Assembly: GCA_050950145.1 (NCBI GenBank)
Contig: JBMNHB010000001.1
Coordinates: 492,820-556,819 of the forward strand
DNA length: 64,000 nt
Direction: 5' to 3'
Origin: Candidatus Dojkabacteria bacterium
GTDB taxonomy: Bacteria; Patescibacteriota; Dojkabacteria; SC72
Of this stretch, positions 12,539-51,131 are shown one piece after another. A program made the translations under genes and the position numbers. The notes below the pieces were generated by a model, which did not search any database, was not told the origin of the DNA, and saw only the letters and a program-made list of their open reading frames with translations. Every line of letters starts with the position of its first letter. Position 1 is the stretch's first letter.

Positions 12539-12615
12539 GGGCGATTAGCTCAGCTGGTTAGAGCGTCACATTGACATTGTGGAGGTCACAGGTTCGAGCC
12601 CCGTATCGCCCACCA
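12539..12615 (+). tRNA. tRNA-Val (anticodon GAC), CCA encoded
   Basis: Acceptor stem GGGCGAT/ATCGCCC. D-arm GCTCAGCTGGTTAGAGC. Anticodon stem-loop TCACA-TTGACAT-TGTGG gives anticodon GAC. T-loop GGTTCGAGCC. Discriminator A plus CCA. Confidence 0.85.
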
Positions 12616-42075: not shown

Positions 42076-42720
42076 ATGAAAAAAAGCATTCTTAAAGACA
42101 ACCTAAAAACTCTTTTTTTAACAAAAGACATGCTTCGTTTACTCTCTGATGAAAATGAAGAATCTATTAACAAAAGTATTACTAGATGGATAAAGAGTGG
42201 GGATTTAGTCAAACTAAAAAATGGTCTTTACATTTCAAAGGCGAATGTGGATAGCTATTCTGCAACAGAAGGATTTACAGAATTAATTGCAAATAAATTA
42301 AGAACACCATCGTATGTTTCTTTAGAATATGCACTTGCAAAATATGGTATTCTAACTGAAGTAATATATGCAGTAACTTCACTAACATTAAAAACAGGTA
42401 GAAAGTATAGTAATCCAACTGGAGAATATATATACAGAAGTATTAGAAAAGAATTTTTTACTGGATATACAGCAATGAGATTTCTTAACTATACATACTA
42501 CATAGCTACAAAAGAAAAAGCCCTTTTTGATTACATTTACTTCTCCTTAGATACACTTCCAGAAGATATACAGAATATTAACCTTGTTGAGGAATTAAGA
42601 TTAAATATGAAATCTTTCAAAAAGAAAGATTTAGCAGAACTTCAGAGATATGCAAAGATATCAAAAAACAAGAAAGTTATTAAAATAATTGAGAATATTG
42701 TTAAAAATGCATCCAATTAA
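42076..42720 (+). CDS. abiEi: AbiEi-like antitoxin / transcriptional regulator (type IV TA, abortive infection)
   Basis: N-terminal LFLTKDMLRLLSDENEESINKSITRWIKSGDLVKLKNGLYIS resembles the AbiEi_4 wHTH domain. It overlaps and precedes an AbiEii gene. Confidence 0.6.
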   Translation: MKKSILKDNLKTLFLTKDMLRLLSDENEESINKSITRWIKSGDLVKLKNGLYISKANVDSYSATEGFTELIANKLRTPSYVSLEYALAKYGILTEVIYAVTSLTLKTGRKYSNPTGEYIYRSIRKEFFTGYTAMRFLNYTYYIATKEKALFDYIYFSLDTLPEDIQNINLVEELRLNMKSFKKKDLAELQRYAKISKNKKVIKIIENIVKNASN

Positions 42721-43522
42721 ATATCAACTACAAACAATTGTTCAAGAGGCAAAGAGTAAGAACAAAAGTAATGCTTTGATTAGAAACAAGCTTAAGGAAT
42801 ACTTGCAGGATATTATCTTGTATATAATATATAGCAACAAGAAATACAAAGATCTCATTTTCTACGGAGGAACACTACTAAGAAAGGTATATGGATTAAA
42901 CAGGCTTTCTGAAGATTTAGATTTTGAGAGTACTACTAGGATTGATATAGATGAGGTGGCTTCTGTGATAAGGAAATATTTTAAGGAGGAGCATTTTAAT
43001 GGGGTAGAGGTAACAACACAGAGAAGTGAGAATATAATGAGGTGTTTGGTTGAGTTTGAACTGTTACATGATTTAGGATTATCAGAAAATGAAAATGAGA
43101 AGCTACATGTTAAGGTAGAGATAAATGAGAGAGTAGGGAGTAAGTATCCAACAGAATATACACCATATACAAAAGATATATACAGCATGGTTATTAAACA
43201 TTACTCATTACCAATTCTAATGGCTAGTAAGATGATTGCTTGTATAGAAAGGATATACAGAAGAGGAAAAAGTAATGTTAGTATTAAGGGACGAGATTTC
43301 TACGATTTAATTTGGTATATGGAGAAAGGTATAGAGCCAGATAAAACCTTTCTTAAAGATAGTAAATATACAGTAAATGAAGCATGGGAGAGTATTGATA
43401 AGGTTGTAGATAGGATTTCAAAAAAAGACCTCTTAGTTGATTTAGAACCTCTTTTTGAAAATAGTACATATATCAATGAGTGGTGTAGTAACTTTCATTC
43501 TTTCTACAAAAGATTGAGATAG
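42689..43522 (+). CDS. abiEii: AbiEii/AbiGii-family nucleotidyltransferase toxin (DUF1814)
   Basis: LIFYGGTLLRKVYGLNRLSEDLDFES matches the conserved fKGGTaLrkvyg.dRfSEDiDF motif of AbiEii NTases. Confidence 0.8.
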   Translation: MRILLKMHPIKYQLQTIVQEAKSKNKSNALIRNKLKEYLQDIILYIIYSNKKYKDLIFYGGTLLRKVYGLNRLSEDLDFESTTRIDIDEVASVIRKYFKEEHFNGVEVTTQRSENIMRCLVEFELLHDLGLSENENEKLHVKVEINERVGSKYPTEYTPYTKDIYSMVIKHYSLPILMASKMIACIERIYRRGKSNVSIKGRDFYDLIWYMEKGIEPDKTFLKDSKYTVNEAWESIDKVVDRISKKDLLVDLEPLFENSTYINEWCSNFHSFYKRLR

Positions 43523-44704: not shown

Positions 44705-44767
44705 AAAGTCATTAACTATACAACATTTCTTTTGATTTAATCTCAAAAATATTGTATAATTAAGTAT

Positions 44768-44808
44768 TAGGTTAAGGGAGGTCCATTACAAAAATGTCCC
44801 TCCCATTT
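44768..44808 (+). terminator. Rho-independent terminator after the VanY-like gene
   Basis: GGGAGG-tccattacaaaaatgt-CCCTCCC followed by attttttatt. Confidence 0.55.
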
Positions 44809-44860
44809 TTTATTCCCTCTTTTACCAAATTATCCAAAGTATGATAAACTAAATCTAATA

Positions 44861-46682: not shown

Positions 46683-46727
46683 CTTTAATTGATATAGATC
46701 CCTAGATTTTGTATGATATAGTTAGCA

Positions 46728-46790
46728 GAGGGAATACTCGCCCCATATGCTTGGGGAGATGAGATTCCCTCTTTCTTTTCTAAAACTAAC
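46728..46790 (+). terminator. Nested hairpin plus T-run terminating the GT2 gene
   Basis: GAGGGAAT-actcg-CCCCatatgcttGGGG-agatgag-ATTCCCTC followed by tttcttttc. Confidence 0.5.
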
Positions 46791-46821
46791 TATCAAGTTA
46801 ATATCTTTATCAAATTTTCTC

Positions 46822-46903
46822 TTGTTATTAACACAAAAAACAAGTATACTTAGCTAATAGGTTGCAGAAGAGTCATCACCAAGATAGGCTCTTCTTTTTT
46901 TTA
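46822..46903 (+). ncRNA. Promoter-hairpin-T-run module copy 1 (TTGTTA-17-TATACT, then AGAAGAG...CTCTTCT plus T8). Candidate tiny sRNA or orphan promoter/terminator unit.
   Basis: -35 at 46822-46827, -10 at 46845-46850, stem 46866-46872/46889-46895, T-run 46896-46903. It is paralogous to 47019-47100 and 47776-47857. Confidence 0.4.
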
Positions 46904-47018
46904 CATAATCAATTTCCTAATAAATACAATTATGAAATCTAGATTGACTTGATATATAAGAAATTGAAAAACTTTTCTAAAACTAACTATCAAGTTAATA
47001 TCTTTATCAAATTTTCTC

Positions 47019-47100
47019 TTGCTATTAATGTGATAACAAAGTATACTTGTATCAATAGGATTCGGGAGGGCCCTTACGAAAGTTTTGACCCTCCCATTTT
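47019..47100 (+). ncRNA. Promoter-hairpin-T-run module copy 2 (TTGCTA-17-TATACT, then GGGAGGG...CCCTCCC plus Ts)
   Basis: -35 at 47019-47024, -10 at 47042-47047, stem 47064-47070/47089-47095. It is preceded by the shared A-unit ACAATTATGAAATCTAGATTGACTT at 46926. The hairpin abuts the 3' end of the NYN gene. Confidence 0.4.
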
Positions 47101-47710
47101 ATTTCTCAATAAAACTCTTTATTCTTGAAAACTCTTTGTATTCTCTAGAATATTTTTCTTTAATAATTCTAGCAGTCTTTTTTTTATGTGAAAGAACTGC
47201 AAACCTTGTTCCCTTCTCTCTTGCATATCGAAGTAGTATCTCGAAATCTCCATCTCCAGAAAGGAGAATAAATGAATCGTACTCTGGTTCTAATCGAAGC
47301 ATATCATAGGTTAAGTCAACATCACAGTTAGCTTTTAACTTTAATCCTCTTCCTGTTCTAATATGTTTAATTGGTTTTAGTCTTAAAACATAACCAAACT
47401 CTTCTAATTTCTTGAAGAACTGTACCTTCTTAATACTTTTGTGAATCTTCTGACTGTTCTTTCCAGTCCTCTGTTTAGGTAATTTGGTCAAATACTCAAG
47501 GAGGTTCTTAATTGGATATGGGGCAGTTGATTTGATATTTGCTTCATATCCACAAGTGTCAACTCCTGAGTAATAGAAAAACTTTTTAACTTTGTATTTA
47601 CTTTTGAGGTATTCCATCAGCTTCTTAAAATCGACCCTCCAATCTTGGTCATTTGGTGTTCCATAAAACATATTTGAAGCATCGATAAAGACATAACAGT
47701 TTTTAGTCAT
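47099..47710 (-). CDS. NYN-domain (LabA/DUF88-like, PIN-related) protein
   Basis: YVFIDASNMFYG ... NCDVDLTYDMLRL ... DSFILLSGDGDFEILL. The acidic residues of NYN/LabA nucleases are conserved. Confidence 0.7.
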   Translation of the reverse strand: MTKNCYVFIDASNMFYGTPNDQDWRVDFKKLMEYLKSKYKVKKFFYYSGVDTCGYEANIKSTAPYPIKNLLEYLTKLPKQRTGKNSQKIHKSIKKVQFFKKLEEFGYVLRLKPIKHIRTGRGLKLKANCDVDLTYDMLRLEPEYDSFILLSGDGDFEILLRYAREKGTRFAVLSHKKKTARIIKEKYSREYKEFSRIKSFIEK

Positions 47711-47729
47711 ATATAGATATTACAAAACA

Positions 47730-47857
47730 ATTATGAAATCTAGATTAACTTCATATACGAGAAACTAAGATTTTCTTGTTATCAACTCAACAAACAAGTA
47801 TACTTACAACAATAGGATTCGGGGTGGCCACTCATTTTGACTGACCATCCCTTTTTT
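47730..47857 (+). ncRNA. Promoter-hairpin-T-run module copy 3 with A-unit (TTGTTA-17-TATACT, then GGGGTGG...CCATCCC plus T6)
   Basis: A-unit ACAATTATGAAATCTAGATTAACTT at 47730. -35 at 47776-47781, -10 at 47799-47804, stem 47821-47827/47845-47851 (with one G:U). Confidence 0.4.
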
Positions 47858-47949
47858 CTTAATTGTACTTCCCAACAAAATATTGCAATATATTTCCATA
47901 ACATACGGAAAAGTGTATGTTACAGAAATAAAATAAATAGAAAATGGAA

Positions 47950-49403: not shown

Positions 49404-50096
49404 ATGAAAGACTTTTTGAAAAATGCATTTAGTATTTTAGGAGTAGTTTTACTCCTAGCATTAGTCTGTATATTGGTAATCCCAGGAGTTTACAAACTTG
49501 GGAAAACAACATTTGATTGGGCTTGGGGTCAACCTGTAGTTCAAGTTCAACAGCCTGATGTTGCATGTCCAAGCTGTCCTGTATGTCCTTCTTCTACAGA
49601 TACAGAAGAAAAATTTGACACTATGGCATGTATGGACAAAGTTATAAAACGAATTAAAGTCCGAAGGGAAAACATTAGGCAGGAAGAGCTTCAAACGCTT
49701 ATTCCGCAAGCAACTGCAATGTGTCAACAAGAAAACAATGGCCAACCTGGTATTAGTAATTTTATACCTGGTACAATTATCCCATATGGGACGATTACAT
49801 TTGATCTAGAGGATAGGGTATGGATTCTTGAGAATTTCAGGGTACCTTCAGTAGCAAATTATAACACCGCTTATATTATAAGTGGTGAGCATACTGTGTA
49901 TGACCCTGTCACAAAAGAAAGATACAATATCCAAACAGATATAAGTAATCCAGCCAATATTTTTTTGTCTCCTTTCTGGATGCAGACTGAGCTCGGTTGG
50001 TTGAAAGACTACAGCAGAGTTGACTTCAAAGTCTGTTACAACTTTAAAGGCGATTGCGCCTTACCTCAGTCATTAATTGACGAGATGACACCATAA
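49404..50096 (+). CDS. Hypothetical N-terminally anchored/secreted protein with Cys-rich CPSCPVCPS motif
   Basis: Strong RBS AAGGAGG. N-terminal TM/signal VVLLLALVCILVIPGVY. There are 10 Cys. The gene appears GC-richer than its flanks. Confidence 0.4.
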   Translation: MKDFLKNAFSILGVVLLLALVCILVIPGVYKLGKTTFDWAWGQPVVQVQQPDVACPSCPVCPSSTDTEEKFDTMACMDKVIKRIKVRRENIRQEELQTLIPQATAMCQQENNGQPGISNFIPGTIIPYGTITFDLEDRVWILENFRVPSVANYNTAYIISGEHTVYDPVTKERYNIQTDISNPANIFLSPFWMQTELGWLKDYSRVDFKVCYNFKGDCALPQSLIDEMTP

Positions 50097-50303
50097 TTTC
50101 TCTCTGCTCCCGGGTGGGGGATATCTTCTTTTTGCTTAATTGCAATAAGAACCCCCACCCACTCTCAAGAACCATCACACACTATAAATCTTCTAAGACT
50201 AAAATAAGTCTTACTGATGAGTCCATATATATAAATATTAAGGACGAAAAGATAAAATAAAGAAAAAATTGTTAAAAGAGAGGATGTATATCCTCTCTTT
50301 TTT

Positions 50304-51131
50304 TTACTTTAATACCTCCCTAGAAAATTCAAATACTTTCATAAAGAGAGTAGGGGGGAGAATACTAAGTATTCTAACTCCTACTTTTTGCATATACCAT
50401 ATTACATATTCCCTAAAGGTAGGCTTAATATTTAGATTCTGTATAGCCCACTTCCTCATATCATCTGTCAATTTAAAATGTTCAACCATCTTAGACTGAC
50501 TCTCTGTTTGAAAAGTCATTCTGTATTTAAGAACAGTATCTGGTAGATTAGCAAATTCACCCTTTGTACTTAGTATAAGAAAAAGTTTAACATCTTCTAC
50601 CTTCCACATATCTTCAGGATAAAGACCTATCTCTTCTAATGTAGATCTTCTTAATGTAACAGCTGGATGTGCAAAAGGTTGAAAAAGAAATCTATTTTTC
50701 TTTAGATCCTTGTCTTTTTGTGCATACTCCCTATGACCAATAATGTCCGAATTTTCATTAATGATATCTATCTGACCACCCACAGCTACACAGTTAGGAT
50801 GACTCTCTAGATACTCAACCTGTTTTAATATTCTATCTGGATACATAATATCGTCTGCATCCATCCTAGCTATATATTTACCTTTAGAAGCTCTAATACC
50901 AATGTTAATGACATTACCTAAACCATTCTGTTTCTCCACTGGAAGAACTATTATCTTCTCTCCATATTCTTTAAGTATCTCTAATGTACTATCTGTACTC
51001 TTATCATCAACAACTATGATCTCAATATTTTTATATGTCTGATTAATACAACTATCTATTGCTTCTTTAATATATCTCTCTCCATTATGTACTGGTATTA
51101 CAATGGAAACTAGTGGATTAGTAGAGTTCAT
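50304..51131 (-). CDS. Family 2 glycosyltransferase
   Basis: LVSIVIPVHNGERYIKEAIDSCINQTYKNIEIIVVDDKSTDST and DADD are classic GT2-A signatures. Confidence 0.7.
   Translation of the reverse strand: MNSTNPLVSIVIPVHNGERYIKEAIDSCINQTYKNIEIIVVDDKSTDSTLEILKEYGEKIIVLPVEKQNGLGNVINIGIRASKGKYIARMDADDIMYPDRILKQVEYLESHPNCVAVGGQIDIINENSDIIGHREYAQKDKDLKKNRFLFQPFAHPAVTLRRSTLEEIGLYPEDMWKVEDVKLFLILSTKGEFANLPDTVLKYRMTFQTESQSKMVEHFKLTDDMRKWAIQNLNIKPTFREYVIWYMQKVGVRILSILPPTLFMKVFEFSREVLK

Follow-up and report, generated by a model that had tools for sequence, protein, structure and literature searches.

Predicted small RNA genes lying tail-to-tail with an NYN-domain ribonuclease gene in bacteria of the Candidate Phyla Radiation

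Antisense-controlled toxin genes are the closest described counterparts of the locus reported here, which lies in a 64-kb stretch of DNA (contig JBMNHB010000001.1; hereafter the window, meaning the whole stretch, within which positions are numbered) from a bacterium of the Candidate Phyla Radiation (CPR, or Patescibacteria) with ~32% G+C, and in which predicted small RNA (sRNA) genes accompany a gene for an NYN-domain, PIN-like ribonuclease (RNase). In type I toxin-antitoxin systems the toxins are membrane peptides of <60 aa, and the antitoxins are RNAs of 100-220 nt with overlaps of at least 75 nt. The present locus resembles the B. subtilis type I pairs txpA/RatA and bsrG/SR4 in having a convergent small RNA gene with its own strong promoter, in transcripts that would overlap at their 3' ends, and in forming a two-gene autonomous cassette with orthogonal paralogues and with decayed or orphan copies in variable regions. 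It differs from them in that the partner is a soluble NYN RNase of ~200 aa with a predicted leaderless mRNA and the RNA measures only ~45 nt; an invariant 5' tail, such as this RNA carries, is to our knowledge not a type I feature.

Other systems share different parts of the arrangement. E. coli SymE/SymR and RalR/RalA likewise consist of a nuclease or nuclease-like protein held down by a small RNA encoded in cis or nearly so, but their folds (AbrB-like and small DNase) are unrelated to NYN; SymR and RalA act at the 5' end or ribosome-binding site, RalA needs Hfq, and we know of neither system in CPR bacteria. Type III systems (ToxIN, CptIN, TenpIN) also couple an endoribonuclease gene to a small structured RNA gene whose product possibly binds the protein. 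Their antitoxin RNA comes from an array of 36-nt repeats that precedes the toxin gene in the same direction, with a terminator between the two, and the toxin processes it, whereas here a single convergent RNA lies downstream of a gene whose product has the NYN rather than the ToxN/AbiQ fold. VapBC, a type II system, resembles the locus in its nuclease, which has a metal-dependent PIN-like fold, and in being a small cassette that is mobile and variable, but the VapBC antitoxin is a protein encoded upstream in the operon, and no such gene lies beside this NYN subfamily. Finally, the window protein is a bona fide member of the NYN/LabA-like proteins (PF01936), which include 2QIP (VPA0982, of unknown function), and it is set apart from them by its RNA partner, none having been found described for the others in the literature searched. 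The locus would act like the known antisense-controlled toxin genes, yet it contains no small hydrophobic peptide, no repeat array and no ToxN toxin.

A family of NYN-linked small RNA genes

The modules described below, each made up of a promoter, a 5' motif, a GC-rich stem and a T-run, very probably represent genuine NYN-linked sRNA genes of ~45 nt with their own promoters and terminators, and the family appears to be widespread, lying tail-to-tail against one NYN subfamily in many CPR bacteria. A protein-anchored metagenome scan yielded 80 loci with NYN homologues of 36-98% identity (relatives retrieved for comparison bear L-numbers, and many are metagenomic contigs without taxonomy). In nearly all of them the strand opposite NYN carries, just past the NYN stop codon, a near-consensus promoter (TTGACA-17-TATAAT), the motif ACTAAAC(A/G)T, a hairpin of 11 bp closed by a 5-nt loop, and a T-run touching or including the stop codon. 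The 60 distinct sequences among these modules were aligned (alignment A3), and a covariance model, R1, was built from them; its E-values are rough by construction. R1 found 65 matches at E<0.01 in 285 kb from 71 NYN loci, every one of them on the strand opposite NYN and starting at its 3' end. The module is present by this measure at 63 of the 71 loci, two of which have a second tandem copy. Among the remaining eight, L012, L021 and L023 carry divergent modules of the type found in the window, the contigs of L028, L061 and L098 end right after NYN, the copy in L054 is degenerate, and L079 is a genuine exception. R1 also matched at the NYN stop codon in genomes outside the model, namely Levybacteria GCA_016182235 (62 bits), Parcubacteria GW2011_GWA1_50_14 (45 bits) and Pacebacteria GCA_018001705 (54 bits, plus a tandem copy), and it had no matches elsewhere in these three loci, of which up to 20 kb were covered. 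The idea of a tiny sRNA family tied to the NYN gene, which the earlier note had put forward from three modules and would have abandoned had neither transcripts nor further copies elsewhere turned up, is strongly supported by this recurrence of one architecture and by the promoters and covariation described next.

Both the promoter and the hairpin point to a transcribed RNA. A perfect TTGACA -35 hexamer is present in 41 of 59 distinct modules and at least five of its six bases in 51, with spacers of 16-18 nt, and the distance from the end of the -10 element to ACTAAAC is exactly 6 nt in 49 of the 59, a fixed spacing that places the predicted transcription start at the first A of the motif (A1). 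From this start to the NYN stop codon there are 37-52 nt in most loci, and in six loci the NYN reading frame runs into or across the sRNA. Pairing is kept in 93.2% of the helix cells of the 60 sequences, as compared to 44-62% when the partners are slid by 1-3 columns; double-sided changes number 133 against 43 +/- 5 in shuffles, 9 of the 11 pairs covary, and RNAalifold independently predicts the same helix. The signal is specific to one strand: G.U cells outnumber A.C cells by 88 to 10, pairing is 93% when the sequence is read as sRNA and 81% when it is read as NYN, and the mean folding energy is -16.7 versus -12.1 kcal/mol, 58 of the 60 sequences folding more stably as sRNA. Throughout the family a hairpin followed by a T-run exists only on the sRNA strand, where alone the G.U pairs are valid. 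The 5' tail is near-invariant (A1, C2, A4, A6 and C7 are invariant), and within the stem an A18-U36 pair is conserved in 55 and a U19.G35 wobble in 54 of the 60.

NCBI records an identical copy of the window NYN protein from a metagenome-assembled genome of Candidatus Dojkabacteria. The protein scores 77.8 bits against Pfam PF01936 (cut-off 24.2) and matches the NYN family only; D10, D130, D153 and D155 are invariant in the NYN alignment and are, by sequence, the acidic residues expected of an active PIN-like nuclease. Its AlphaFold model (pLDDT 88.5) has as top structural matches the uncharacterised LabA-like protein 2QIP (Foldseek E 2e-7), which is the top match by sequence as well as by fold, and the phage T5 flap endonuclease. 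In the window the gene begins TAATAT-ctatat-ATG (TAATAT, 6 nt, ATG), and family-wide (L029-L100) NYN genes have a TAnAAT-like -10 hexamer, often after TGn, 6-8 nt before the ATG. With this hexamer and no Shine-Dalgarno sequence before NYN genes across the family, NYN is predicted to be its own leaderless transcription unit, which would imply leaderless NYN mRNAs in many CPR lineages. The surroundings of NYN vary, from housekeeping genes (L103) through a diversity-generating retroelement (L107) to the variable cell-envelope cluster of the window, and the best reading is that NYN and its sRNA gene form a compact autonomous cassette of ~0.8 kb.

A few loci depart from the simple arrangement. Two complete sRNA genes with different stems stand in tandem at the 3' end of one NYN gene in L041 (2131-2262), L059 (3091-3218) and L107 (963-1102), and the DNA between the two holds no NYN remnant. 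The next genes in L107 and L108 encode a reverse transcriptase and bAvd, a hallmark of diversity-generating retroelements. In L079 and L087 (3100-3420) the NYN reading frame extends past its usual end, no sRNA is recognisable, and a direct repeat of ~75 nt (caacaatcccttcataacgctccatgag...) lies downstream of NYN.

Several other identities were considered and set aside. At Rfam 15 gathering thresholds only a tRNA-Val was found in the window and nothing in the module region; 15 related loci gave no match, a permissive scan of L057 returned sub-threshold noise only, and a known RNA family was rejected on these scans. A full-text literature search found no description of an NYN/LabA-linked sRNA or of such an sRNA in CPR bacteria, and in view of both results the family is previously unannotated. 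A tRNA-like RNA or tmRNA was rejected because ARAGORN finds only the tRNA-Val at 12539. A small open reading frame (ORF) starting at the conserved RUG (positions 8-10) has no stop codon before the terminator and no ribosome-binding site, and the substitutions are compensatory, not codon-like. A target inside the NYN mRNA, whether reached in trans or at the 5' end, was dismissed since no 7-mer complement of the tail occurs in any of the 60 loci. A mobile-element end (attC, MITE or IS200-type hairpin) does not agree with conserved promoter hexamers and strand-specific G.U pairs, which point to a transcribed RNA, and no recombinase accompanies the cassette. For a phage or plasmid origin there is one weak IMG/VR locus and no phage match; the distant NYN genes of Sinorhizobium plasmids are only 28% identical and lack the module, R1 having no match at that locus. 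Membership in a defence system was rejected on a partial, weak match to the generic NYN model of PADLOC.

Modules of the window and exchange of NYN alleles

As judged from comparison with relatives, a single cassette in the window, copy 2 with its NYN gene, is intact, whereas copies 1 and 3 and module 4 are orphan sRNA genes (Table 1). The exact pattern TTGYTA-N17-TATACT occurs at three sites in the 64 kb (46822, 47019 and 47776), all on the + strand, as against a chance expectation of 0.07 +/- 0.26 from shuffles, 0 of 100 of which reached three. At each site AATAGGWT follows the -10 element by 5-6 nt (46856, 47054 and 47811), after which a 7-bp GC outer stem encloses a partly paired interior of 17-19 nt and a T-run ends the module; the predicted transcripts are more stable than shuffled controls (z -2.1 to -3.0). 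The features that the earlier note had ascribed to these three promoter-hairpin-T-run modules were all found in place, including the hairpin of copy 2 at the 3' end of the convergent NYN gene, whose stop codon falls within the T-run, and the position of copy 3 just upstream of the NYN start. Module 4, located through a covariance-model match, preserves the same order of elements, and A[AT]TAGG[AT]T is kept in all four paralogues despite wholly different stems. The window copies have a GC-rich stem directly before a U-run on the predicted transcribed strand, as an intrinsic terminator would. Among 185,579 species genomes the strict pattern of promoter and AATAGG recurs only in L008, a near-identical sister strain labelled Saccharibacteria in GTDB, nine other matches being chance promoters or coding sequence with no hairpin; a general promoter of the lineage was rejected on the grounds that the strict pattern is confined to the three window sites and this strain.

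Table 1. Positions of the NYN gene, the sRNA modules and the associated units in the window
Feature	Position	Strand	Remarks
NYN-domain (PIN-like) ribonuclease gene, 203 aa	47099..47710	-	Pfam PF01936
Copy 1, orphan sRNA gene	46822..46902	+	predicted
Copy 1 promoter	-35 TTGTTA 46822-27; -10 TATACT 46845-50	+	
Copy 1 5' motif AATAGGTT	46856-63	+	
Copy 1 stem AGAAGAG/CTCTTCT	46866-72 / 46889-95	+	T-run to 46902
Copy 2, sRNA gene paired with the intact NYN gene	47019..47104	+	predicted
Copy 2 promoter	-35 TTGCTA 47019-24; -10 TATACT 47042-47	+	
Copy 2 5' motif AATAGGAT	47054-61	+	
Copy 2 stem GGGAGGG/CCCTCCC	47064-70 / 47089-95	+	
Copy 2 T-rich tail	47096-47104	+	includes NYN stop codon (reverse complement of 47099-47101)
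Copy 3, orphan sRNA gene	47776..47857	+	predicted; 66 nt upstream of NYN start
Copy 3 promoter	-35 TTGTTA 47776-81; -10 TATACT 47799-804	+	
Copy 3 5' motif AATAGGAT	47811-18	+	
Copy 3 stem GGGGTGG/CCATCCC	47821-27 / 47845-51	+	one G.T; T-run 47852-57
Module 4, orphan sRNA gene between VanY and sortase genes	44732..44811	+	predicted; outside the interval of the earlier note
Module 4 promoter	-35 TTGATT 44732-37; -10 TATAAT 44755-60	+	17-nt spacer
Module 4 5' motif ATTAGGTT	44766-73	+	
Module 4 stem GGGAGG/CCTCCC	44776-81 / 44799-804	+	T-run 44806-11
B-unit upstream of copy 2, includes AAGTTAAT	46972..47018	+	duplicate at 46775-46821 upstream of copy 1
A-unit 1, upstream/promoter region of deleted NYN gene	46926..46975	-	
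A-unit 2, upstream/promoter region of intact NYN gene	47711..47775	-	
NYN deletion scar	46901..46930	-	last ~30 nt of L012-type NYN including stop codon, fused to NYN upstream region

The window modules agree with the canonical family in some respects and depart from it in others. Copy 2 lies opposite NYN with its U-run at the NYN stop codon and copy 1 abuts a 30-nt remnant of an NYN 3' end, while copy 3 and module 4 share this position by proxy only, through near-identical counterparts in L023 and L016 that abut intact NYN genes. The promoters (TTGYTA-17-TATACT in copies 1-3, TTGATT-17-TATAAT in module 4) stand 5-6 nt before A[AT]TAGG, much as in the family. The RNAs would carry AAUAGGW or AUUAGGU instead of ACUAAAC, and the copies have 7-bp outer stems with 17-19-nt interiors instead of 11 bp and a 5-nt loop. 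Between the two types stand the modules of L016, L019 and L024, whose NYN proteins are 53-60% identical to that of the window and which combine ACUAGAC, 7-bp stems and longer loops with R1 scores of 27-29 bits (E about 1e-3); the 5' motif is graded from ACUAAAC in distant lineages through ACUAGAC in these three to AAUAGGA in the window clade, and L019, which is not syntenic with the window, has its module at the NYN 3' end. Because the window copies fall short of the R1 and motif tests but share the position and are joined to the family by intermediates, we file them as a divergent subfamily, not as canonical members. The top R1 match in the window, itself non-significant, is a perfect 12-bp palindromic hairpin at 50274-50301 with A- and T-runs on both sides, which lies between convergent genes (49404-50096 on the + strand and 50304-51131 on the - strand) and resembles a textbook bidirectional terminator.

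Comparison with relatives indicates where the four modules come from. A neighbourhood of a GT2 gene, NYN and a gene for a 324-aa protein is common to four informative relatives (L008; L012-L015; L023; L016-L018), and the four window modules correspond one-to-one to modules of four different NYN alleles found in relatives. Copy 2 is identical in strains L008, L021 and L022, and its hairpin and loop are related to those of L016. The sole module in L012-L015 (NYN 67% identical) is of the copy 1 type, with its T-run against the NYN stop codon. In L023 (NYN 64% identical) a copy-3-type module abuts NYN, and copy 3 of the window is 95% identical over 61 nt to this module of a third NYN allele. In L016-L018 (NYN 60% identical) the hairpin that abuts NYN resembles those of copy 2 and module 4, and the module 4 hairpin is 92% identical over 38 nt to the L016 module. 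Copy 3 is absent from L012-L015 and L016, where only 39-43 nt separate the 324-aa gene from NYN; L008 has copy 2, NYN, the A-unit and copy 3 and lacks copy 1 and the first A-unit; and only the 3' half of module 4 is retained in L008 and L012. The presence of modules varies even among near-identical strains. Protein identity between the window and L012 is 95% for GT2 and 92% for the 324-aa protein but only 67% for NYN, and on these comparisons the NYN cassette is a hypervariable island in a conserved neighbourhood.

The origin of copy 1 can be followed most closely. Window positions 46777-46930 match L012 5733-5580 with 99.4% identity over 154 nt (blastn), a stretch that in L012 runs from the B-unit through promoter, hairpin and T-run into the final 30 nt of the NYN coding sequence, and window positions 46926-46951 match L012 4984-4959, in the NYN upstream region, with 96% identity (blastn). 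Together these two matches indicate that a 595-bp deletion with an 'acaat' junction removed the NYN gene beside copy 1. A-unit 1 is identical to the 43-nt spacer, formed by the A-unit, that separates the 324-aa gene from NYN in L012-L015; A-unit 2 is 100% identical over 52 nt to L012 4960-5011; and the A-unit core AGTTAATCTARATTT also stands upstream of NYN in the non-syntenic L019. The B-unit recurs upstream of the modules in L008, L012 and L023. A tblastn search for NYN pseudogene remnants gave nothing significant, the scars being too short for it and having been found by nucleotide identity to relatives. Loss of the NYN partners by deletion is the best reading for copy 3 and module 4 as well as for copy 1. 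In L008 the region corresponding to window 44705-44860 (L008 5060-6200) holds ~1 kb of extra DNA with a gene for a 189-aa protein that has no Pfam match, and after the 3' half of module 4 there are ~45 nt translating to EEYIDFLRLKKVCM*, which resemble an NYN C-terminus and may be a second NYN deletion scar.

These comparisons change the meaning of three observations made earlier from the window alone. The stems had been taken to covary: the wider family does so, whereas those of the window are swapped cassettes of different NYN alleles. Upstream of the -10 element copies 1 and 2 agree at ~90% of positions, and downstream they are unrelated, which indicates cassette mosaicism instead of stepwise compensatory change, and the three copies by themselves therefore show no covariation. 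A tandem duplication of ~200 bp had been proposed for copies 1 and 2; the repeat exists (D1, 46775-46851 versus 46972-47048, 90% identity, 197 nt apart), but it reflects two cassettes, the first of which lost its NYN gene. The A-unit assigned to copies 2 and 3 is likewise a real repeat (D2, 46923-46963 versus 47724-47764, 88% identity) that belongs instead to the NYN upstream region on the other strand.

The promoter regions contain further symmetrical elements. The extended -10 sequence AAGTATACTT is a perfect palindrome at 46840-46849, 47040-47049 and 47796-47805, and in copies 1 and 3 bases of the -35 region and those before the -10 element form the inverted repeat CTTGTT-N12-AACAAG; either could be bound, as an operator that overlaps the promoter, by a dimeric regulator. 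The B-unit (46791-46817 and 46988-47014) and the A-unit (46928-46954 and 47729-47755) are ~70% complementary and share AAGTTAAT[AC]T, which may be a motif common to both promoters of the cassette; in L019, TAGATTAACT stands upstream of the sRNA promoter too.

Antisense control and its alternatives

On balance, we think it probable that the convergent antisense sRNA restrains expression of the NYN RNase in the manner of a toxin-antitoxin pair. In this mechanism each module would give rise to a ~45-nt non-coding RNA from a sigma-70-type promoter, with a single-stranded 5' tail, a hairpin-terminator and a U-run, and the NYN gene, whose weak promoter is mainly of the -10 type, would be transcribed into a leaderless mRNA. 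With the NYN stop codon inside the sRNA U-run, any NYN mRNA reaching beyond that codon must, by the layout of the two genes, hold the exact complement of the sRNA in its 3' end. The near-consensus promoter of the sRNA as compared to the minimal promoter of NYN leads us to expect the sRNA in excess. The abundant sRNA would pair with the 3' end of the NYN mRNA, 5' tail to 3' tail and hairpin to complementary hairpin, and so lower its stability or expression, following the logic of a 3'-overlapping type I pair in which an RNase replaces the membrane peptide. The pattern of decay fits a toxin and its antidote, in that NYN has apparently been deleted where sRNA genes remain intact, an sRNA gene accompanies NYN at 63 of 71 loci, extra sRNA genes stand in tandem and alleles are swapped within conserved flanks. 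It is possible, though doubtful, that the cassettes form a new RNA-controlled toxin-antitoxin or conflict class in which the NYN RNase is the toxin, the sRNA is both 3' antisense and ligand, and the orphans persist because they confer anti-addiction immunity to related cassettes that enter the genome.

Several observations weigh against antisense control or against counting the window copies in the family. The R1 scores of copy 2 (10.7 bits, E 1.9) and copy 1 (10.3 bits) are not significant, and the homology of the window copies rests on their position and orientation relative to NYN, the spacing of promoter and motif, and the series of intermediates. NYN homologues without the RNA exist, if rarely (L079/L087). 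The pair in L103, among housekeeping genes, also fits a housekeeping RNase with an autoregulatory antisense RNA. On the NYN strand, what comes after the hairpin complement is only a poor U-tract, AYGUUUAGU. Pure antisense action has no need of a near-invariant ACUAAAC tail, a fixed geometry of 11 bp and 5 nt or a conserved U.G. Lastly, unrelated terminators of the window score as well with R1 as copies 1 and 2 do, which would also suit the view that there is no RNA function at all and that the hairpins are terminators of neighbouring genes and the promoters duplicated junk. In L008, moreover, the copy 2 hairpin is the sole terminator-like element after the co-directional GT2 gene. We strongly disfavour this view nonetheless, given that TTGACA is perfect and at a fixed distance in 41 modules with otherwise unalignable flanks, that modules occur without any co-directional gene upstream (L019, L103), that the G.U pairs are strand-specific, and that R1 matches, in the NYN loci scanned, are exclusive to NYN.

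The invariant tail, the fixed geometry and the U.G wobble point to recognition by a protein instead of, or besides, pairing, and under antisense control they would mean that a protein, possibly NYN itself, also reads the RNA. A separate reading, credible but rather unlikely to be the right one, is that the RNA is primarily a protein-binding partner of NYN, whether pseudo-substrate, inhibitor, cofactor or processing substrate, as in a type III-like system or ribonucleoprotein; the convergent layout would then be mainly a matter of genome compaction, and the PIN/FEN-like nuclease would recognise a 5' tail joined to a duplex. Such a role suits the conserved A18-U36 and U19.G35 positions, the retention of A[AT]TAGG[AT]T by four window paralogues whose stems differ completely, the likeness of the NYN fold to a flap endonuclease, and the absence of the tail complement from the body of the NYN mRNA. 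It does not call for a strict overlap with the stop codon, yet this overlap is kept at 36-60% NYN identity and in many unrelated neighbourhoods, and the co-directional repeat arrays of type III systems are absent. Antisense control and a protein-ligand role may well act together.

Since the sRNA promoter is directed into NYN and its terminator lies exactly at the gene boundary, the module might alternatively serve as a regulated antisense attenuator, in which conditional read-through of the hairpin yields a long antisense RNA covering NYN, the gene is silenced through double-stranded RNA or transcriptional interference, and the short RNA is the default product. Weak or interrupted U-runs in several terminators, such as those of copy 2 (ATTTTATTT) and L076 (CATTAC), and a conserved 5' tail that could bind an antiterminator agree with this proposal, but most terminators of the family are strong and canonical (11 bp, GC-rich, 5-8 U), no alternative antiterminator structure is evident in the ~10-nt leader, and orphan copies keep the same form while facing non-NYN DNA, so that we regard an attenuator as improbable. 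Still more improbable, in our estimate, is an sRNA acting in trans, with the 5' tail as a seed for other cellular or invader RNAs and NYN linked to it by a common function such as degrading the target. Seed-type sRNAs classically have a single-stranded 5' tail ahead of a terminator hairpin, as here, and the four window copies share the tail and not the stems; the shift of the tail among related lineages (ACUAAAC, ACUAGAC, AAUAGGA) would be unexpected for a universally conserved target, however, and no target was found in the sequences at hand. An insulator or a decoy is possible as a sub-mechanism.

Neighbouring elements and wider significance

Two other features of the window lie close to the modules. 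At 46689-46775, directly behind the GT2 stop codon, there is a promoter-like TTGATA-17-TATGAT, and after it come a very stable nested hairpin of 46 nt (46727-46772; -26.3 kcal/mol, z -3.9) and a tail rich in T. The hairpin has no AATAGG motif and is not NYN-linked, and ~77 nt around this position are absent from L012 and L008; the element probably serves as terminator of GT2 or represents a small insertion. The interval 42076-43522, which lies just upstream of the VanY-sortase-GT2-NYN cluster, contains a DUF6088-like gene (weak match) and after it a gene for an AbiEii nucleotidyltransferase toxin (PF08843, E 2e-24), a pair that looks like a type IV toxin-antitoxin or abortive-infection system and that neighbours VanY in L012, L013 and L015 too.

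Almost nothing is known of regulatory RNAs in CPR bacteria, which are mostly uncultivated and have tiny genomes with few recognisable regulators. The modules described here make up a very short class of sRNAs that is well supported by a conserved promoter, a predicted start, covariation and strand-specific wobbles, and their obvious protein partner, NYN, offers a concrete entry point to RNA-based control in these organisms. The covariance model R1 can be used at once for annotating CPR genomes. If the cassette is indeed a toxin-antitoxin pair or a self-limiting RNase, antisense control would extend to PIN-like nucleases and to leaderless mRNAs, and the local hypervariability of otherwise conserved CPR neighbourhoods, with its allele swaps, scars and orphan RNAs, would be explained.

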